IMG/VR virus record: IMGVR_UViG_3300032401_000001 | Location: 96,001-160,000 of that record | Reading direction: 5' to 3' (one strand) | Length of the DNA: 64,000 nucleotides | DNA from: a virus | Shown: positions 4,302-41,964 of the stretch, piece by piece | How positions within the stretch are numbered: position 1 is the first letter of the stretch | Layout of the letters: each line of letters opens with the position of its first letter | Notes under the pieces: model-generated | Told to the model about the DNA's origin: nothing | The model's database searches: none | Seen by the model: only the letters and a program-made list of their open reading frames with translations | Program-made: the position numbers and the translations under genes

Positions 4302-4889
4302 ATGACACCTGACGACGAGAAGACTACGGATTCCCGGATCATCGAGAGCGCGGTGGCGGGTGCCGTAGCTGGATTGGCTGATGACGATGCGCCACTGGTG
4401 AAGGTCGAAGAGACGGCGTCACAGCGCTTCGCCAACTACTGCAAAGGCGTCGGGGGGCTCGTCAGCGGTATCACAGCGGTTGCGGCGGTGGTGCTCAGCA
4501 TCTTCGCATTGACGCGCGGTGAGCCGACAGCGAAGAAGGGCTACCAGGCCGTCGACGTGGTCGTCAAGCAACTCTCGACGGACATGCAGAAGGAACACGA
4601 CGACCGTATTCGAGTCGAGGCCCTGATGGGCAAAGACGTGACCTCAGTGCGCGAACAGCTGCAGTTGGTGGTGCAGCTGCTCTCGGTGCGCGCGACTCCG
4701 GCGGTGCGTCGACCCGTACGCTTGCCGCCGGTGACGAAGAGCAACCCGCCCACCGCCGCTCCTCCGGCACCGGCGTCACAGCCGGCGGAGATCCTGCAGA
4801 CCCTCACCTTGAAGTCGCAGGTGAAGATGACGAAGAAGGCACCGCCATCAGCGCGGCCACCGCTACGGAAGCTGCCGCCGCTTCCGTGA
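4302..4889 (+). CDS. membrane-anchored protein with coiled coil and Pro-rich tail
   Basis: One TM-like segment (GLVSGITAVAAVVLSIFAL) and a Pro-rich C-terminus. Confidence 0.65.
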   Translation: MTPDDEKTTDSRIIESAVAGAVAGLADDDAPLVKVEETASQRFANYCKGVGGLVSGITAVAAVVLSIFALTRGEPTAKKGYQAVDVVVKQLSTDMQKEHDDRIRVEALMGKDVTSVREQLQLVVQLLSVRATPAVRRPVRLPPVTKSNPPTAAPPAPASQPAEILQTLTLKSQVKMTKKAPPSARPPLRKLPPLP

Positions 4890-5099
4890 GTCGTGGTAGA
4901 GCGCGCGGACTCGGGCTACGGTCTCCTGGGGCTTGAGTTGCTTGCCCTGCGCTTGTGACCCTACGGACGTAGGGCCAGCGGTGCCTGGTGCCTTTGGTCG
5001 TGGCATAGTGGCCATGCTTTGATTCTGCCACAAGCTGAGATTCGCTGGTTTCCCTTTCCGTTCAGAACGTGCCAACGCGCGTCGTCGGTGCTACACCGA

Positions 5100-5996
5100 C
5101 AGAAGAGGCTACGGTAGAGGTGGTTGCGCCGCCGCAGTGAAACTCATCGCCCAGCTCGAGCCGGCTTCGCGGGCCTCCGGTGGTCTACCTCCTTCGTCCC
5201 AGCTCACCCGCCTCGAGCTGGGCGTATTCGCAACAACGAAGTGAACGGAATTTTGCTCGTCTGGTGTAGGGCTGTTCGTGAGTCGCGAATCACGAATCGC
5301 TGCCGCCGGCGTCACGCCGGCATTCTCGTGGGCACGAGAGTTCTCGGGTATGCGGTTGCTCGGACCAGGCCTGGTGCCGGTCCCCGCAACCAGCGATAGC
5401 AGACGAGGGTCGTCAGCCGGCTGCTGCGCCCGAAGAAGGGCTACGAATGCCCTTCTTCGCGCGCTGCCCCCCGGCTGTCGAACGTAGCAGACGAGAATGT
5501 TCTCTGCTGATGACCACCGCGTCCGGCGGTAAGTGCCCCCGGACGCCAGGTCATCAGCATGAAAACGTAGCAGACGAGAAGCGATGTGCGCGGCTGTCTA
5601 ACGTCCCGCCTCGGCTGCGCCGATCTGGGACGTCGACAGACCGTGCAACGAAGCAGACGAGCTTTGAGGCCTCAGTGCGCTGTCTGTCAGCGCTGGTAGT
5701 GCAACGCTACTCTGGTAGCTGCAGTGTGGCTCACCTCGTGATGTCGACCCGCCAGGCTGCGCTGCGCTTTCCTGGCGGTCGACATCCCTGCGGTGAAAGC
5801 CGAGCACCCACAGCCAACCGAGCTAAGTGAGGCTTCTACGAACCCTAGTACGCTGTCCCACAGCGTCGACGGCGTTACGGCCGTCTCTGGAGCTCCACTC
5901 GAGGTGACGAGGGCGCATGTCAGCTCCCAGTCGCCTCGACTGGGAACCGACATGCTTTCGGCGCCCGCCGAATGCCCAAGGCAACTGTAGGGTTCG
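5100..5996 (+). ncRNA. candidate large structured non-coding RNA (~900 nt)
   Basis: No credible gene; many long helices (5149-5160/5212-5223, 5431-5441/5449-5459, 5505-5515/5549-5559, 5740-5756/5771-5786, 5839-5847/5988-5996). Confidence 0.6.
5397..5661 (+). repeat. four copies of (T/A)AGCAGACGAG at 83-88 nt spacing
   Basis: Copies start at 5397, 5485, 5568 and 5651; the last three are preceded by AACG. Confidence 0.85.
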
Positions 5997-6032
5997 GGAG
6001 TATCATCGGCACAGCAGCGGAGGAGGTCGGCG

Positions 6033-6314
6033 ATGGCATACTTCGATCGCCGGGCGTGCCGGGACTACATGCACCTGGTGCTGTCACAGTTGGACGTGCC
6101 CCAGGTGCCGCTCCTATGGCACTATCTCGCGTACCGTGACGCGCGAATTCTCAGCTGCTTCGACGAAGATCAGCGCGCCAAGGTGCGTGGTCTCGTACAA
6201 GCCTGGGAGTGCCTCTTGCCGATGGAACAAGAGGACGTCATGGCGCATTTCGCTACTGTCCTCGAGGAGCTGGCGCGGCACCACGCCGCATTACCAAGTA
6301 AAGGACCTGGATGA
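6033..6314 (+). CDS. hypothetical protein
   Basis: GGAGGAGG SD; overlaps the next gene (ATGA). Confidence 0.7.
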   Translation: MAYFDRRACRDYMHLVLSQLDVPQVPLLWHYLAYRDARILSCFDEDQRAKVRGLVQAWECLLPMEQEDVMAHFATVLEELARHHAALPSKGPG

Positions 6315-6943
6315 GCGCCAAGAACCGCAAGCAGGCTGCCAAGGCCTTTGACCAGTACCCCACTGATCCGCGCTTGGCGCGTGCCGGCTTCGAGAAGCTC
6401 TGTCAGCGGTACGGCAGCCGCCTCACGGAGATGACGACGTTCCTGGAGCCCGGTGCGGGTCGTGGTCCCTTCTGCCAGGCGGCACGTCTCTACTTGCCCA
6501 ACGTGTGCCGCGTCGTGGGCGTCGAGCGGCATGCGCCGCCACCGGACCGCTTCAAGTACGAGCTCGTGACGCAGGACTTCCTGGCATGGCAGCCCAAGTT
6601 CCGGCCCGACCTCATCGCTACCAACCCGCCGTTCACGCCGGCGGCAGAGTTCATCCGGCACAGCCAGGAACTGCTCGCGCAGGGCGGGTTGATGTTCTAC
6701 CTCATGCGCGTCGGTATCCTCGGGTCCAAGAAGCGACGTGAGCTGTGGCAGCAGGTCAACTTGCTCGAGACCTGGATCATTCGACCGCGGCCGAGCTTCC
6801 AGTACGAGGGTGGCAGCGATGCTTCGGAGTACGCATTCTTCGTGATGGACGGGCGGCAACCCAAGGCGGGGTGCAGTCAGCAGGTGCGGCAGGACTGGGT
6901 GGACTGGGACGGGGATACAGATGAGTTGTTCGAGGAGGAGTGA
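6311..6943 (+). CDS. SAM-dependent N6-adenine-type DNA methyltransferase
   Basis: Motif I FLEPGAGRGPF and motif IV TNPPF. Confidence 0.8.
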   Translation: MSAKNRKQAAKAFDQYPTDPRLARAGFEKLCQRYGSRLTEMTTFLEPGAGRGPFCQAARLYLPNVCRVVGVERHAPPPDRFKYELVTQDFLAWQPKFRPDLIATNPPFTPAAEFIRHSQELLAQGGLMFYLMRVGILGSKKRRELWQQVNLLETWIIRPRPSFQYEGGSDASEYAFFVMDGRQPKAGCSQQVRQDWVDWDGDTDELFEEE

Positions 6944-7407
6944 TGGGACGCCTTCGCCACGGTCATACCCAGGGTGCGCGAATGACCGTTGAGTACCTGG
7001 CGTGGTGCAACATGATTCAGCGGTGTACGAACCCCAAGGTGCAGAGCTATGCTACGCACGGTGCTCGTGGGATCAAAGTTTGTGTGCGCTGGTTGACTGA
7101 TTTTCAGAACTTCCTGGCGGACATGGGACGGAAACCGCGTCCGAGTCATCGGTGGAGTCTTGAACGGAAGGACAACAACGGAGACTACGAACCTGGAAAT
7201 TGTTGCTGGGCAACTTCGAAAGCGCAGGGACGCAACAAGAGAGGTAATCGGCTATTCACCGTCTGGGGTCGAACTCAGTGCGCAGCTGCTTGGGCCGAAG
7301 AGTACGGAATGTCGAAGCAGACGCTGCGCGCACGCCTGCTCCGGGGTTGGTCGATGGAGCGGATTCTCACTACCCCAATTAAGTCGCCATTGCATCAAGC
7401 CTCTTGA
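6940..7407 (+). CDS. phage HNH-type homing endonuclease
   Basis: WCNMIQRC...YxxHGARGIKVC...SLERKDNNGDYEPGNCCWAT signature. Confidence 0.8.
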   Translation: MMGRLRHGHTQGARMTVEYLAWCNMIQRCTNPKVQSYATHGARGIKVCVRWLTDFQNFLADMGRKPRPSHRWSLERKDNNGDYEPGNCCWATSKAQGRNKRGNRLFTVWGRTQCAAAWAEEYGMSKQTLRARLLRGWSMERILTTPIKSPLHQAS

Positions 7408-7507
7408 CGACGCTTTGTAGGCCGATTATCTTACGTAAAGTTACAGGTTTGTTGTGGCCTCCCTTCAGCCTCGTGTTCTTCCTCCTCCAGGCGGAAGAAT
7501 TGCTTGC

Positions 7508-7589: not shown

Positions 7590-7958
7590 ATGCCCGACAC
7601 GAACCTCTACGTGGGCAACCTGCCCTGGGACATCACCAAGGAAGAGCTGGCGGCGCGCTTTGCGCAGTTCGGCGAAGTCCGTGGGGTACGCATCATCACC
7701 GACAAGGAGACGAGCCGATCGCGCGGCTTCGGTTTCGTCGAGTTCGCGCAGGCGGCCGACGCCCAGGCGGCCCTGGTCGAAGATGGCCAGGACTTCGGGG
7801 GCCGGGCGTTGCGCGTGAATCTCGCCAACCGCCAGAGCGAAGATCGACCGCGCAGCGGTAACGGCAACGGGCAGCGGCCCAAGAGCAACAGTGGCGGCGG
7901 CAAGCCCCGCGGCCACGGCGGCGGGCGTCCGCGCACGGCGTACGGCGACGAGGGCTGA
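7590..7958 (+). CDS. RRM (RNP1/RNP2) RNA-binding protein with Gly/Arg-rich tail
   Basis: RNP2 LYVGNL and RNP1 RGFGFVEF. Confidence 0.92.
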   Translation: MPDTNLYVGNLPWDITKEELAARFAQFGEVRGVRIITDKETSRSRGFGFVEFAQAADAQAALVEDGQDFGGRALRVNLANRQSEDRPRSGNGNGQRPKSNSGGGKPRGHGGGRPRTAYGDEG

Positions 7959-8133: not shown

Positions 8134-8469
8134 GGGCCTGAAACGGTTTCGACAGGGGTACAGAAGGCAGAGTAGCGTGCCGTGGTTGATCGGTGGGCCA
8201 CGTTAAAAGCCGATCAAAACCGAAAAGCGAACGACAACATCGTCCGCCAGCCCCTCCGCGCCGCGGCCTAGCCGAGGCGGGAGGAGCGGGGAAGCCCTCA
8301 GAGCTCCTGGCAACAGAAAGAGGGATGGTGGAGGCGCCGCAAGGCGCCCTGTAGCACCGGGTGAGGCTGGCCATACCGGTAACTACGCCAGCACGCCTCG
8401 CAAGAGGCTACGCACGTAGAAGCTCTACTGGAGTACTGCTGGACCCGGGTTCGACTCCCGGCAGGTCCA
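8134..8469 (+). ncRNA. ssrA: tmRNA, tag (A)ANDNIVRQPLRAAA
   Basis: GGGCCTG/CAGGTCC acceptor with G3.U70, GGTTTCGAC 5' motif, T-arm CCGGGTTCGACTCCCGG, tag frame 8227-8271. Confidence 0.95.
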
Positions 8470-8576: not shown

Positions 8577-9314
8577 ATGAAGGCACAGCGGCTGAACCAG
8601 GTCATCTCCGTCGAGAAGGGCATCCGGAACAAGACCACGGAGCGCATCACGGAGCTGTATCACACCGTGCAGAAGCCGGCGCTCTTCGACGGCTTCAACA
8701 AGAAGTACCGCCCACTCGCCGAGGACGGCGAGCAGTTCCCGCCCGAGGACAAGCGGGTGCAGGTGAAGGGCATCGACGTCGTCAAGGAGCTGTTCGCGTG
8801 CATGCGCGAACTCTTCGACGTGACCCTCATCAAGGACAGCGCCAACTGCATGGCGAAGGCCGACGTGGTGGTAGGCGACAAGGTCGTCCTCAAGGACTGC
8901 CCGGCCACCTACCTGCTGTTCCTCGAGAAGCAGCTGACGGACCTCCACACCGCGATGTCGAAGATGCCGGTGCTCGACCCGGCCGAGGAGTGGGAGTTCG
9001 ACAAGAACGCGTCGCTGTACCGGACGCAGCCCGTCGAGACCGGCCGCACCAAGAAGGTGCAGAAGTCCCTGGTGCTGCTGGCGCCGACCGACAAGCACCC
9101 GGGACAGGCGCAGCTCATCACCGAGGACATGACGATCGGCTACTGGGGCACCGTGAAGTTCTCGGGGGCGATGGCACTGCCCGACAAGGAGCGGCTGCTC
9201 ATCCGCATCGAGAAGCTGCACCATGCGGTGAAGTTCGCCCGTGACGAAGCGAACACCGCCGGGGTGATCGACCGCAGCACCGAAGCGGTCTTCGACTACT
9301 TGACCAGCGCCTAG
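8577..9314 (+). CDS. conserved hypothetical protein (LNQVISVEKG...YLLFLEKQL...KFSGA family)
   Basis: 245 aa, AGGAG SD, very high GC3; resembles a widespread uncharacterised bacterial/phage family. Confidence 0.85.
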   Translation: MKAQRLNQVISVEKGIRNKTTERITELYHTVQKPALFDGFNKKYRPLAEDGEQFPPEDKRVQVKGIDVVKELFACMRELFDVTLIKDSANCMAKADVVVGDKVVLKDCPATYLLFLEKQLTDLHTAMSKMPVLDPAEEWEFDKNASLYRTQPVETGRTKKVQKSLVLLAPTDKHPGQAQLITEDMTIGYWGTVKFSGAMALPDKERLLIRIEKLHHAVKFARDEANTAGVIDRSTEAVFDYLTSA

Positions 9315-35087: not shown

Positions 35088-37793
35088 CTAGGAGCTGATG
35101 AGGTGCAGGCCGATGCGGTTGAGGGGCTTCGGCATCTGCACTTCCATGTAGAGCTCGGCGCGATCCGCCGCGGCGGTGCTCTGGACCACGGAGGTGACGC
35201 TGGCTGAGAGCAGGGGGGCGCCGATCTTGGCGTACTTGCGCAGCTTCAGCAGGTCGATGCCGGTGTCCAGCGATTGGTTGAGCAGCCCGAGCGTCTCCTC
35301 GCTGATGTTGTACTGGCCGAGGAAGTCCTCGAGGATGTCCTGGAAGAACACTGAGATGAAGTCGAAGTTCTTGACGATGCTGTACTCACCGGTCTCGAGC
35401 GTGCTCGGGTCGGTGGTGAGCTGGTGGAGGCAGTAGGGCAGCGCCGAGGGCGTGTCTTGTACGAAGAGGAACCAGCCACCGTCCGACAGCGTGGTCAGCT
35501 GCGTGTCGCTGAAGTAGCGCGTCGAGTTGTAGATCTGGTCGACGCCCGCGATGCCGAGGTTGGTGAAGCCCTGATGCGACGGCAGGCCCGAGGTCAGGCC
35601 GCCGACGACGGCGGCCAGGTAGTAGCCCGGCTGGGCGTCGGCGGCTTCGGGGGTCGAGGGCACCGTACGGGACTTCGAACCGTCGACGAGCCCGTTGACC
35701 ATCACCGAGTCTGGCCACACCAGCACGGTACGCCGGCTCTTGAAGCTCTGCGCGATCGTGACCAGTTCGGTGACCTGGTCATCCTTGGTCAGCGCGCGGT
35801 TGACGCGGAAGCGCAGGGTGCTGTCGCCGACATCTGGCGCAGTGGCTTCGGCATCCTCATCGGCCGCCAGCACGATTGCGTTCTCGTTGGGGATGTAGGC
35901 GACGGGGTGGCTGAAGACCGTCGTGAACACCGTGGCGCTGATGGGGTTCGGGATCTCCAGTGCGTCACCAGCGATCACCATGTCGGTGAGGAAGGTCGCC
36001 GTGGGGCTCTGGATCATGCGGAAGACGCGCCGCGTGACGATGGCGGTGCCCGCCGGCACGGAGACGAGCGGCGCGTAGAGGCTGCCGATCAGAGCGGTCG
36101 TTGCGGTCCAGGCGCCGACCGGGGGGTTCTGCGTGGAGGCGATGGGCGTCCACTGGGCGGGCGTGACTACGGGCGACGTCGTGACCAGCCAGTCACCGTT
36201 GTCGGCGGCGCTGAGACCACCAGTGATGCGCAGGACCTTGCCGACGTGGGCGGCGAGTCCGACGATGCCGGCGTCGGCGGTGAAGAGGTTCGGTCCGGTG
36301 GTGGCGACACCGGCGATACAGGTGGTGCCGGAGACCGGCGTGCCGGTGCCGCGGATGATGTAGTACTTCGTCGTGCCGGACTGCTTGTTGGTGCTGGCGA
36401 ACGCGGTCGTGGTGCGCAGGCGCTTGTTGTCGTACACCTGAGCGACGGTGTAGGTGCCCTTCCGGGTGGCGACCGTGTCATCGACGATGACCAGCGTGTC
36501 GCCGGCGCGTACGCCGGCGGTGACGAAGGTGCCGGTGGCGTCGTAGAAGACGTTGATGGCGTCGGCAGCGACGATCGGCGTACCGGTGATGGCACCGTCC
36601 ACGGTGGCGTGGGCACCGTTGGCGAAGCTGGCGGCGTTGCTGGGACTGACGACCTTCGTGGTCGGCAGGGTCTGGGCGCCGAGAACGACGCGGAACTTCT
36701 GTGGGATGCCGGTGGTCTCGGAGTAGCTGACGCTGGCCAGCTGTTCGTACTGCGCCTTGTAGGTGGCGAGGATGCTCTTGTCCACGGTGAGGGGCACCGT
36801 GGCGTAGACGTCCTTGCGACCTTCGATGACTTCGAGGCACTCGCCGTGGCCGGTGGCGTCGTCCGACTTGACGCCGAAGAACTGGATGGGCGTAGTCGTG
36901 TTCTTGAGTGCGGCGATACAGCACCCGGCGAGCGGGTTGCGCGCGTCGTTCTTGCCGATCTTGGTGGTGACATCCGTCTCCGAGGAGACCGTGTCGAGTG
37001 CACGCAGATCCTGTCGCAGGGATCGGTACTCGACGTAGACCTCGGCGTAGCACACCGTGCGGACACTGGTCTCACTGGGGAGGACAATCACCGGGACGCC
37101 GGTTTCGGTGCTGATCAGGGCGGGCGTGGTGACGACGGTGGTCACGCCGCCCTGGACGATGATCTGGTTGTTGGTGATGACCACGAAGTTCGAGTCGACG
37201 GCGACGTCGTGGATTTCGCGTTCGACGCGGATCTTCAGCTTGCTGGCGCTACCCGCGGCGAAGTTGGTCGTCGTGTAGATGAAGTAGTTGGTGGCGTCGA
37301 CCGACAGCACCTGCTTGACGAGTCCCGTGCCCCCGGCGGGGTTCTCGATGATGACGTAGTCCCCGGCCCGCATGTTGGTCACTTGGGCCTTGAAGACGGT
37401 GCTGCAGCTACTGCAGTCGATCTTGTTGTGCGGGATGAAAGGTGAAGCCGTGGCTACCACGGCGCCGGTGGTGGGCGTGTTGTTGTCCTCGGCCATACGC
37501 ACGCGGCAGGCGTCGAAGTAGATCTGGACGCTGCTGGCATCGAGCAGCGCGCCGATCTTGTTGCCCGGTGGTTCCGCGATGGTGATGGCGTCGGTGGCCG
37601 CGGCCGGCGGCACGTACGGGTTGGCGGTGTCCTTCGTCCCGTAGTTGGAGGCGGCTTGGATGTCGCCCTTGTCGTCGAGGTAGTCCTTGACCCAGTACGC
37701 GGGGCCAGCGACCAGGCAGTTCAGATCGGGCGTGGCCGGCGTGACGGTGACGGACGCGTATTCTTGATAGACGAGAACAACTGGTCGTGCCAT
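35088..37793 (-). CDS. contractile tail sheath protein
   Basis: 901 aa; sheath-type C-terminus (HQLTTD...EYSIVKNFDF...VQMPKPLNRIGLHL). Confidence 0.75.
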   Translation of the reverse strand: MARPVVLVYQEYASVTVTPATPDLNCLVAGPAYWVKDYLDDKGDIQAASNYGTKDTANPYVPPAAATDAITIAEPPGNKIGALLDASSVQIYFDACRVRMAEDNNTPTTGAVVATASPFIPHNKIDCSSCSTVFKAQVTNMRAGDYVIIENPAGGTGLVKQVLSVDATNYFIYTTTNFAAGSASKLKIRVEREIHDVAVDSNFVVITNNQIIVQGGVTTVVTTPALISTETGVPVIVLPSETSVRTVCYAEVYVEYRSLRQDLRALDTVSSETDVTTKIGKNDARNPLAGCCIAALKNTTTPIQFFGVKSDDATGHGECLEVIEGRKDVYATVPLTVDKSILATYKAQYEQLASVSYSETTGIPQKFRVVLGAQTLPTTKVVSPSNAASFANGAHATVDGAITGTPIVAADAINVFYDATGTFVTAGVRAGDTLVIVDDTVATRKGTYTVAQVYDNKRLRTTTAFASTNKQSGTTKYYIIRGTGTPVSGTTCIAGVATTGPNLFTADAGIVGLAAHVGKVLRITGGLSAADNGDWLVTTSPVVTPAQWTPIASTQNPPVGAWTATTALIGSLYAPLVSVPAGTAIVTRRVFRMIQSPTATFLTDMVIAGDALEIPNPISATVFTTVFSHPVAYIPNENAIVLAADEDAEATAPDVGDSTLRFRVNRALTKDDQVTELVTIAQSFKSRRTVLVWPDSVMVNGLVDGSKSRTVPSTPEAADAQPGYYLAAVVGGLTSGLPSHQGFTNLGIAGVDQIYNSTRYFSDTQLTTLSDGGWFLFVQDTPSALPYCLHQLTTDPSTLETGEYSIVKNFDFISVFFQDILEDFLGQYNISEETLGLLNQSLDTGIDLLKLRKYAKIGAPLLSASVTSVVQSTAAADRAELYMEVQMPKPLNRIGLHLISS

Positions 37794-41080: not shown

Positions 41081-41647
41081 CTAGGGGACGATCACCTGCT
41101 GCGTGTTGGGACCGAAGGCCCCCGGTTTGAAAAACTGGATCACGTAGGTGAAGCCCGCTTCGACTGTGATGGGTTGATTCCAGCGTCCGTCAGTACCGGT
41201 CGACGTGGTACCGACGGCGGCTGCGTAGTTGCCGAGGTCGAAGTCGATTTTCTTCCAGATGCGGATCTGAACTCCGACCAGTGGGTGATTGTCGGGGTCG
41301 ATCGGCTGCAGTTCGTTTACCCCGCCGTAGTCCTGGTTGAGGACGACGGTGTTGGGAAATGGCGGTGGCGTGGTCGACTCGGAAGGTTGAAACGGATCTG
41401 ACCAGCCGCTCGGATTGCCGTCGGTGTCGACGGCGCGTTCGCGATACCACAGCGTGGTGCTGCCGGTGGCATCGACGTAGAAGAAGCGGTTCGAGGTTGG
41501 GTCGTAGTCCGGTCCTGGAATGACGTGCGCAATGCTGACCAGGTCGGTCCAGGTGCCGGGTACACCAGCAACGTCCGGTGCCCGCTGCCAGTCGTAGCGG
41601 GAGATGTCCGACTCGGTGTTCGGCAGCCAGGTCAGTCGGATGCTCAC
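41081..41647 (-). CDS. Fn3/Ig-like virion protein
   Basis: IRLTW...YDWQR...WYRERAVD..GN.SGWS pattern. Confidence 0.65.
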   Translation of the reverse strand: MSIRLTWLPNTESDISRYDWQRAPDVAGVPGTWTDLVSIAHVIPGPDYDPTSNRFFYVDATGSTTLWYRERAVDTDGNPSGWSDPFQPSESTTPPPFPNTVVLNQDYGGVNELQPIDPDNHPLVGVQIRIWKKIDFDLGNYAAAVGTTSTGTDGRWNQPITVEAGFTYVIQFFKPGAFGPNTQQVIVP

Positions 41648-41964
41648 GACGCATCACCTCGAGGATCACGCGGGGTTGCCGGCGGTTCGGTGCCGACGAC
41701 TTCGCTTCCTTCTGTACCATGCGGCACAGTCGGCGGTTCAATTGTAGTGTCGATCCCCGTCGGACCACAAGGTACGTGCGGAGGTCCGGCGCCGCTGGCT
41801 TCCATGCCAATGGGGACGTGCGGCGGCACCGGTTCGGCGATGCCTTCTGGGGCGCAGGGGCGGTGCGGCAGAGGTCCGTAGTGCCCTTCAGGGTCGTCTG
41901 GGGCGCGGATTTCTTGGAGGTTGATGTACCCCAGCATGCCATCGGTGATGAGGGAGATGGTCAT
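41644..41964 (-). CDS. Pro-rich low-complexity protein
   Basis: PPHVPIG/PPHVPCG/PPTVPHG repeats; coupled on both sides. Confidence 0.55.
   Translation of the reverse strand: MTISLITDGMLGYINLQEIRAPDDPEGHYGPLPHRPCAPEGIAEPVPPHVPIGMEASGAGPPHVPCGPTGIDTTIEPPTVPHGTEGSEVVGTEPPATPRDPRGDAS

Follow-up and report, generated by a model that had tools for sequence, protein, structure and literature searches.

The 64,000-nt stretch of DNA considered here, hereafter the window, comprises positions 96,001-160,000 of a 197,792-bp phage record in IMG/VR (IMGVR_UViG_3300032401_000001; 63% G+C), and coordinates below are those of the window. At 5036-5996 it contains a conserved structured noncoding element, new as a family, which is a chain of independently closed hairpin and multibranch modules joined by an invariant linker. 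The element is embedded in a run of plus-strand genes, where it precedes those for a methyltransferase, a protein with an RNA-recognition motif (RRM), the transfer-messenger RNA (tmRNA), a DUF7873 protein and the transfer RNAs (tRNAs), and is bounded by a small minus-strand gene on the left and a gene for a protein of 93 amino acids (aa) on the right (Table 1). The tRNA genes number 39, with an array of 38 downstream of the element and the 39th isolated at 41614-41705.

Table 1. Features of the noncoding element and of its surroundings (window coordinates; W, window sequence; L030 to L037, syntenic loci named in the text)
Feature	Position	Strand	Remarks
Small unannotated gene	4863-5015	-	conserved; 50 aa, MATMPRPKAPGTAGPTSVGSQAQGK...; left boundary of the noncoding region
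Extended -10-like element	5022-5034	-	invariant ATTCTGCCAYAAG (minus strand CTTRTGGCAGAAT; element TGTGGCAGAAT)
Hairpin H0	5084-5100		GTCGGTG-CTA-CACCGAC; compensatory changes in 3/7 pairs, e.g. GTCGGCG / CGCCGAC in L034 and L033
Hairpin H1	5148-5224		long, bulged; conserved apex CYTCGGTGGTYTRCCTCC; compensatory changes in 8/19 shared pairs
Degenerate linker-like segment	5234-5249	+	CAACGAAGTGAACGGA; 11/17 matches to CAACGAAGCAGACGAGC; directly after H1
Anti-linker	5256-5264	+	CTCGTCTGG (also CUCGUCUGG); invariant in all relatives
Small hairpin Hs	5275-5296		TTCGTGA / TCACGAA
Domain A	5296-5397		closing helix ATCGCTG / CAGCGAT and three hairpins; in 7/7 relatives
Linker copy 1	5393-5407	+	GCGATAGCAGACGAG
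Hairpin U1	5410-5481		~27 bp with internal loops; in all relatives
Linker copy 2	5481-5495	+	AACGTAGCAGACGAG; invariant across 7 relatives
Hairpin U2	5499-5563		W and L030 only; one compensatory pair, GACC / GGTC to GGCC / GGCC
Linker copy 3	5564-5578	+	AACGTAGCAGACGAG
Hairpin U3	5587-5647		apex CGGC-UGC-GCCG
Linker copy 4	5647-5661	+	AACGAAGCAGACGAG
Multibranch domain U4	5667-5836		closing helix GAGGCCTCA / TGAGGCTTC; inner 16-bp helix 5740-5786
Multibranch domain U5	5839-5996		invariant closing helix CGAACCCTA / TAGGGTTCG; about six hairpins
TATCAT, TANNNT-type -10-like hexamer	6001-6006	+	directly after U5, 27 nt before ATG
93-aa all-helical protein	6033-6314	+	Shine-Dalgarno sequence GGAGGAGG at 6019-6026; always the first gene after the array
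Dam-like DNA methyltransferase	6311-6943	+
RRM-domain protein	~7590-7958	+	124 aa; Pfam RRM_1, E 7e-23
tmRNA	8134-8469	+
DUF7873 protein	8577-9314	+

An initial annotation, made from the sequence alone, had singled out 5100-5996 as a gene-free, densely base-paired candidate for a new large phage noncoding RNA (ncRNA). Gene-free it is: the codon-phase GC spread is flat, at 0.01-0.10 over 4920-5999 versus 0.3-0.65 in the flanking genes, and 5036-5996 is the longest non-tRNA noncoding (low-bias) run of the whole genome; the wider gap 4890-6032 is coding in its left part, which belongs to the small minus-strand gene. Folding likewise exceeds that of dinucleotide shuffles. The 931 nt from 5080 to 6010 have a minimum free energy of -481 kcal/mol, as against -394 +/- 10.5 when shuffled (z -8.3), and the reverse strand one of -492 as against -394 +/- 8 (z -12.1), while for 300-nt segments z is -4 to -9.6 within 5250-6000 and close to 0 in the genes on either side. 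Every helix named in the annotation was recovered: its 12-bp helix is part of the longer pairing 5148-5173/5199-5224, the closing helix of domain A has its arms at 5296-5302 and 5391-5397 around three hairpins, that of U4 (5667-5675/5828-5836) encloses the pairing 5740-5749/5777-5786, that of U5 (5839-5847/5988-5996) encloses a hairpin at 5915-5955, and the upstream palindrome is hairpin H0. With the region gene-free, all its helices present and its folding beyond that of shuffles, the observation is confirmed; neither the four tandem copies of the linker nor the conserved 50-aa gene had been remarked upon.

The annotation had also seen no hallmark of the known large RNAs, and covariance-model searches agree with it: there is no Rfam match, GOLLD, ROOL, OLE, HEARO and group I/II introns included. 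At gathering thresholds, cmscan reported only the tmRNA and tRNAs for the entire window, a permissive Rfam scan of 4800-6100 gave only chance miRNA-type matches (E at least 0.55), a scan of five relatives at E <= 0.05 found nothing inside the corresponding gaps, and ARAGORN found no tRNA-like gene in the region.

Metagenomic homologues of the two flanking proteins, the 93-aa protein and a 201-aa protein encoded to the left, are a handful with 51-91% identity, and their contigs provided seven distinct syntenic loci besides the window, labelled L030, L031, L032, L033, L034, L035 (= L036) and L037 (= L038), with W standing for the window sequence itself. All seven have a gene-free gap of 0.6-1.2 kb at the same syntenic position, next to a 201-aa protein that is only 51-91% identical, and the gaps of six of them fold with z -4 to -14 on both strands. 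Other searches were negative: neither the element region (megablast and blastn against 50,697 isolate phage records) nor the 201-aa protein (tblastn against isolate phages) had a match, and three neighbouring proteins, each searched singly against IMG/VR, returned no relatives.

Comparison of these loci reveals widespread compensatory change. In U1, 14 of the 23 pairs changed on both sides and 91% of the cells are paired, as compared with 37-52% when the partners are slid, while in U5 11 of 53 pairs changed on both sides with 94% of the cells paired; for each of the two, none of 500 shuffles reached the observed value. Two-sided changes also affect 6 of the 32 consensus pairs of domain A, the first hairpin of which (GCCGGCG-TCA-CGCCGGC) is nearly invariant, and 16 of the 64 pairs of a further module, X (see below), whose closing helix, with arms ~200 nt apart, has changed at one pair from C-G to U-A in L033. 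Within the five close sequences taken by themselves there are 21 compensatory pairs. The stem of Hs, by reading of the alignment, is TTCGGGA/TCCCGAA in L037 and TTCGCGA/TCGCGAA in L033; an automatic count, limited to four pairs common to the folds of the two strands, shows no two-sided change there. As the sequences are only seven and mutually related, these counts are not formal probabilities, but they differ greatly from the controls with slid partners. Closing helices kept over distances of up to ~200 nt fit a single-stranded fold rather than duplex DNA: bulged hairpins, multibranch domains and closing helices 100-200 nt apart cannot form in a duplex and argue for a single-stranded, most simply an RNA, fold. 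We conclude that the modules are under selection for base pairing and not for sequence, and that the linker and the anti-linker described below are under selection for sequence.

The universal core of the element consists, in order, of the anti-linker, Hs (lost in L032), domain A, a linker, U1 and another linker. Upstream of it, H1 of L035 has a largely different stem sequence with the pairing kept. Downstream, U3 has counterparts with the same apex and different stems in L031 and L032, a hairpin at this place in L033 with a different apex is probably U3, and L030 and L035 lack it. W, L030 and L031 have U4, of which L035 retains a mere remnant (GAGGCTTC), and U5 is complete in every relative reaching that point except L037, which has only fragments. 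In L032 and L035 U5 stands directly or almost directly after a linker; the U4-U5 junction of the window has no full linker. Module X, of ~200 nt and closed by AAGCTGAG/CTCAGCTT, is found in six relatives and is absent from the window and from L037. Entire domains are lost in single loci: L035 is without U2-U4, L032 without U2 and U4, and L037 retains the core only. These gains and losses mostly coincide with linkers, the loss of U4 in L035 lying instead between the arms of the U4 closing helix, and such a pattern of turnover is that expected of unequal recombination between short repeats. Domain A of L031 (7181-7286) is identical to window 5294-5399 even though the neighbouring 201-aa proteins share just 62% identity, which makes the region a mosaic shaped by recent recombination between phages otherwise diverged.

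Within the modules, loops are mostly of 3 nt, GNRA and UNCG tetraloops or receptor-type motifs are not enriched, and a search for conserved long-range pairing between modules found none beyond the anti-linker/linker helix. The apical loop of U1, CURCGAAUG, is conserved in six of the seven relatives, L033 being the exception. Its reading as a mimic of the tRNA-Arg(ACG) anticodon loop was rejected, the register being off by one and the A being G in most relatives, as was its pairing with AUUCG at 5229-5233, a partner that is not conserved. CCTCCT is conserved at the apex of H1 (5186-5200) in all relatives, the window having ACCUCCUU; read on the plus strand it looks like the anti-Shine-Dalgarno end of 16S rRNA, and read on the minus strand like an AGGAGG Shine-Dalgarno sequence that lacks a start codon.

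The linker itself has the consensus (A/C)ACGNAGCAGACGAG, with a constant part of 11-17 nt that is purine-rich on the plus strand. In the window four tandem copies of AGCAGACGAG start at 5398, 5486, 5569 and 5652 (spacing 88, 83 and 83), extend to AACG(T/A)AGCAGACGAG and each precede a distinct long hairpin or domain. The other loci likewise place their copies between stable hairpins, with 2-4 per locus. Over the seven loci reaching the array, GCAGACGAG is unchanged in 17 of 17 copies, and the sequence between the copies diverges or is replaced. The words enriched in the region are linker words only, and no further copy exists elsewhere in the 198-kb genome, for which reason the linker was rejected as a phage promoter. 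Its exposure in silico is only modest: the predicted unpaired probability is 0.30-0.51 for the linkers versus a mean of 0.30 for the region.

Upstream of the array stands a single anti-linker, eight bases of which are complementary to the linker core CAGACGAG. In the partition function the first eight anti-linker bases have an unpaired probability of about 0, their pairing being split among the linkers with the third as the best partner (~0.5). Between H1 and the anti-linker, the degenerate linker-like segment, conserved in W, L035, L030, L031 and L034 and mostly so in L032 and L033, is what we infer to be a linker relic.

A scan of IMG/VR with the 17-mer of the linker gave six single matches, which is about chance level by estimate, the tandem-linker pattern gave 20 loci that are all unrelated coding repeats (acidic or Ala-Asp-Glu runs), and the hairpin pattern of domain A gave none. 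The domain-A pattern in metagenome contigs found two already-known loci and two chance matches in coding DNA. Among 185,579 species genomes, the combined anti-linker and domain-A pattern found seven matches, of which the three inspected are chance matches in protein-coding genes and the other four, from Ensifer/Sinorhizobium, have a span equal to that of one inspected chance match.

Turning to the genes around the element, the small gene at its left boundary shares 27 nt with the end of the plus-strand gene for the 201-aa protein and is the only minus-strand gene in the long plus-strand block. It is present in all eight syntenic sequences, with 11 synonymous versus 3 amino-acid changes between W and L030 and with in-frame indels of 3 nt. 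Its product, 50-57 aa long with the motif PRPK.PG.AGPT.VGSQAQ.K...ELY...RKRRQLP, went uncalled by the gene callers in these contigs, and the 50-aa protein has no match in Pfam and PHROG. The spacer between the -10-like TGTGGCAGAAT element and the start codon is exactly 6 nt in all eight sequences, which suggests that 5022-5034 is the promoter of a leaderless mRNA for this gene. At the other boundary, the 93-aa protein (AlphaFold model, pLDDT 79.5) has no Pfam, PHROG or PDB-fold match. The TATCAT hexamer before it, in place of which L032 has TAGGAT, may be a promoter of its own for the operon that follows.

The RRM protein has the canonical motifs RNP2 (LYVGNL) and RNP1 (RGFGFVEF) and a Gly/Arg-rich tail. 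Its gene lies 0.7-1.2 kb past the array in every relative reaching that far, and ~1.6 kb past it in the window. It is situated just upstream of the tmRNA or, in L037, of tRNA genes. In isolate phages the protein has only three weak matches, one in a Microcystis phage and two in Acinetobacter phage records. The ~490 bp between the methyltransferase-like and RRM genes (6944-7434) are peculiar to this phage, the relatives having ~185 bp there; they contain a 155-aa open reading frame (ORF; 6940-7407) with almost no bias in third-position GC content, and may be a recent insertion or noncoding.

Further downstream, the DUF7873 protein has its nearest homologues (47% identity) in the 194-kb Arthrobacter phages Racecar and Mimi, and a search of Racecar for the tandem linker pattern did not find it; the protein also occurs inside the tRNA arrays of Arthrobacter, Gordonia and Rhodococcus phages. 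Weak matches to the YrlA covariance model were seen in L030 (11239-11368, after the DUF7873 gene; E 0.02, below gathering) and in L032 (9861-9975, ~1.5 kb past the DUF7873 gene and overlapping tRNA calls; E 0.001). Searches for a phage-encoded RNase III, TROVE/Ro60 or RtcB found none. The isolated 39th tRNA gene, a tRNA-Arg(ACG) by ARAGORN, is unusually long (92 nt) and far from the main array, and the Rfam tRNA model at its gathering score did not report it. Elsewhere, a 901-aa minus-strand ORF (35088-37793) has weak partial matches only, in isolate phages. Outside the window, the genome encodes a 398-aa reverse transcriptase (RVT_1, E 1.6e-18) at genome 16061-17257 (L044 1267-2463), preceded, with one 239-aa ORF between, by a DUF2201 (VWA-like / metallopeptidase-domain) protein; no group II intron or other Rfam match was found near the reverse transcriptase gene.

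The reading that we tentatively favour is that the element is a transcribed modular RNA which would display the linker for a sequence-specific partner, with the hairpins serving as spacers and nuclease barriers. We infer its transcription, the strand concerned, the single-stranded state of the linker in vivo and the linker's partner. The element, most likely transcribed, resembles beads on a string, with self-closed hairpins and domains joined by the linker, which would be the sequence-specifically recognised part; the stable and freely evolving hairpins would hold the two to four linker copies apart and block nucleases, and the one upstream anti-linker could pair with any one copy and so mask a site or switch conformers. 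The likeliest reader of the linker would be a protein, for which the phage RRM protein is the best candidate, and the RNA might then be a binding platform or sponge tied to the phage RNA module of RRM protein, tmRNA, DUF7873 protein and tRNA array.

Spelled out to the full, this would amount to an undescribed class of phage regulatory RNA in which insulator hairpins display a 15-nt single-stranded motif read by an RRM protein, with an anti-linker switch and with control of a translation module (the tmRNA, DUF7873 with Y-like RNAs and a near-complete tRNA set), a conjunction that we regard as quite improbable. If true, it would provide the first defined RNA partner of an RRM protein in a bacterial virus; we know of no role for RRM proteins in phages. 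Large phages that encode a tmRNA and a tRNA set of their own are believed to reshape translation in the host, and to our knowledge the regulation of such modules has not been described. Here, a ~1-kb element under clear structural selection heads a tmRNA/tRNA module, with an RRM gene accompanying it. If the linker is a protein- or RNA-recognition site, its 15-nt motif, the 124-aa protein and the exchangeable modules would make a simple system for studying how phage ncRNAs are organised.

Several observations weigh against this proposal. The linker never varies, so that no covariation bears on its pairing with the anti-linker, and the RRM protein is a candidate partner by gene neighbourhood and co-occurrence. 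Both strands fold equally well in all relatives, and G·U-type cells are balanced between them (18 vs 15 in the shared pairs, 8 vs 5 among the close relatives, 69 vs 64 in four modules). Bases left unpaired whichever strand is folded show a slight pyrimidine excess on the plus strand, although the linkers are purine-rich there. G·U pairs are rare, making up ~2% of those common to the two strand folds, and most loops have 3 nt; such a combination is unusual for a sophisticated RNA and would suit a constraint at the level of DNA or of both strands. A promoter scan of the region found no sigma-70-like site, and the TACACC in the H0 palindrome, which the initial annotation had considered -10-like, is not a TANNNT-type hexamer. 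Lying between a minus-strand promoter-like sequence (5022-5034) and a possible plus-strand -10 (6001-6006), the element may moreover belong to neither flanking transcript; with two such outward-facing promoters its transcription would need read-through or a promoter of its own.

Among the alternatives, an unlikely one is a processing array, in which a precursor would be cut at each linker by a sequence-specific host or phage endoribonuclease to release RNAs of ~70-170 nt (A, U1-U5 and X) that are themselves functional, for instance as decoys or regulators. The linker would in that case correspond to the repeat of a CRISPR array or to the spacer between tRNAs. The units are indeed self-closed, mutually different and each conserved with covariation, they are gained and lost as wholes at linkers, and the surrounding part of the genome is rich in processed RNAs (the tmRNA and 39 tRNAs); moreover, the retention of the U1 apical loop in six of seven relatives suggests that the hairpins themselves carry function. 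Yet no candidate nuclease has been identified, with no RNase III gene in the phage, U4 and U5 of the window are joined without a full linker, and the anti-linker would be left without a role.

Much the same low probability attaches to a function of the minus strand, as a structured 5' leader or upstream RNA of the 50-aa gene or, with both strands transcribed, as a sense/antisense pair, the latter of which would explain the almost purely Watson-Crick pairing. Strand comparison by G·U versus A·C counts, alifold energies, z-scores (six relatives), unpaired composition and tetraloop counts did not assign a strand. In the window the minus strand folds no worse than the plus strand (z -12.1 vs -8.3); U1 in seven of seven relatives and U5 in four of five are more stable on it, the hairpin at 5915-5955 forms a continuous 19-bp helix, with two G·U pairs, on this strand only, positions unpaired in both folds are purine-rich on it, and the only conserved minus-strand gene of the block is directly downstream in that orientation. 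Against this, G·U pairs in domain A and module X are slightly more numerous when the plus strand is folded, nothing resembling a minus-strand promoter is seen near 6000, and the small gene, whose start codon follows an invariant -10-like element of its own after 6 nt, therefore needs no leader. The plus strand carries every other gene nearby, the tmRNA and the main tRNA array, and on that account we lean slightly towards it as the transcribed strand.

Less probable again is an element acting as DNA, in which nine-base sites, four direct and one inverted, would bind a phage DNA-binding protein in the manner of the iterons or operators of an origin or regulatory region, with the palindromes as extruded hairpins or spacer DNA. 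This would accommodate the direct repeats and inverted copy of an invariant 8-9-bp site in an intergenic position, perhaps between divergent promoters, the strand-symmetric and nearly exclusively Watson-Crick structure with its many 3-nt loops, and the shuffling of units by recombination. However, bulged hairpins and domains closed 100-200 nt apart cannot extrude from a duplex, yet compensatory changes maintain them; the distance between repeats ranges from 74 to 88 bp and is not phased to the helix; none of the adjacent genes is a replication gene; and the cumulative GC-skew minimum, which bears on an origin, is ~19 kb away (genome ~82 kb). Least of all do we expect a single large (~0.9 kb) ornate RNA with one global tertiary fold like GOLLD, ROOL or OLE, which the size, the phage setting near tRNA genes, the nested multibranch domains and the strong folding z-scores would fit, but for which there is no covariance-model match even at permissive thresholds, no conserved inter-domain pairing beyond that of anti-linker and linker and no enrichment of tetraloop or receptor motifs; relatives with the same flanking genes lack whole domains, as the window lacks X. 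Thus, of the candidate large ncRNA in the initial annotation, the gene-free, structured and positionally conserved region with its compensatory changes is supported, and the single ~900-nt ornate molecule of the GOLLD/ROOL type is not.

With known systems the element shares several traits. Like GOLLD, ROOL and OLE/HEARO it is a large, gene-free and highly base-paired phage region near tRNA genes; a giant RNA of this sort is not supported, for besides the lack of a covariance-model match there is no fixed architecture, X, U2, U3, U4 and U5 each being missing in at least one syntenic relative, and a modular hairpin chain with an invariant linker describes the element better. A retron ncRNA, an idea prompted by the UAGC in the linker, was rejected because the only RVT_1 gene is ~85 kb away, and so was a Y RNA or YrlA with Ro60 (Rsr), as there is no YrlA match in the region or in the gaps of the relatives and the phage is without a TROVE gene. 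REP/BIME clusters are likewise extragenic arrays of palindromes with constant short linkers and recombinational remodelling, but their palindromes are one sequence family genome-wide, whereas the hairpins here are all different, 50-170 nt long, bulged or branched and orthologously conserved; the linker is confined to one locus, and no second copy came up when the region was searched against the genome.

CRISPR arrays and the ToxI-like arrays of type III toxin-antitoxin systems are likewise tandem arrangements in which constant and other sequence take turns and which could be cut into units. A CRISPR array has identical repeats of ~23-50 nt and unique spacers that are not self-complementary, usually with cas genes nearby. 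The repeat here is only 11-17 nt and unstructured, the "spacers" are long self-complementary hairpins conserved across relatives, and no cas-like match was found among eight neighbouring proteins (Pfam and PHROGs). ToxI-like arrays consist of tandem near-identical units of 34-45 nt followed by the gene of a toxin endoribonuclease; the units here share only the linker, the next gene is that of the 93-aa helical protein without family or fold match, and no toxin nuclease gene is adjacent. Both were rejected. With the antitermination sites of nut and rrn leaders the element has in common a conserved linear element beside a variable stem-loop, upstream of an operon rich in untranslated RNAs; it differs in being repeated two to four times in tandem, in its much longer hairpins and in the protein genes that precede the tmRNA and tRNAs, and the linker appears unlike boxA in sequence.

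The nearest architecture appears to be that of the protein-sponge RNAs of the CsrB/RsmZ kind, in which copies of a short invariant motif likewise lie between stable, drifting hairpins and vary in number. Judged by how such RNAs work, the element has the multiple invariant motif copies between hairpins, with modest exposure in silico. Its motif is longer (11-15 nt as against GGA), is placed only in the linkers between hairpins and not in loops, and comes in 2-4 copies; in the place of CsrA, of which no counterpart is known here, the RRM protein is the candidate partner. The element is set apart from such sponges by its long and invariant linker, by its anti-linker and by its large, branched modules, which are conserved among orthologous loci.

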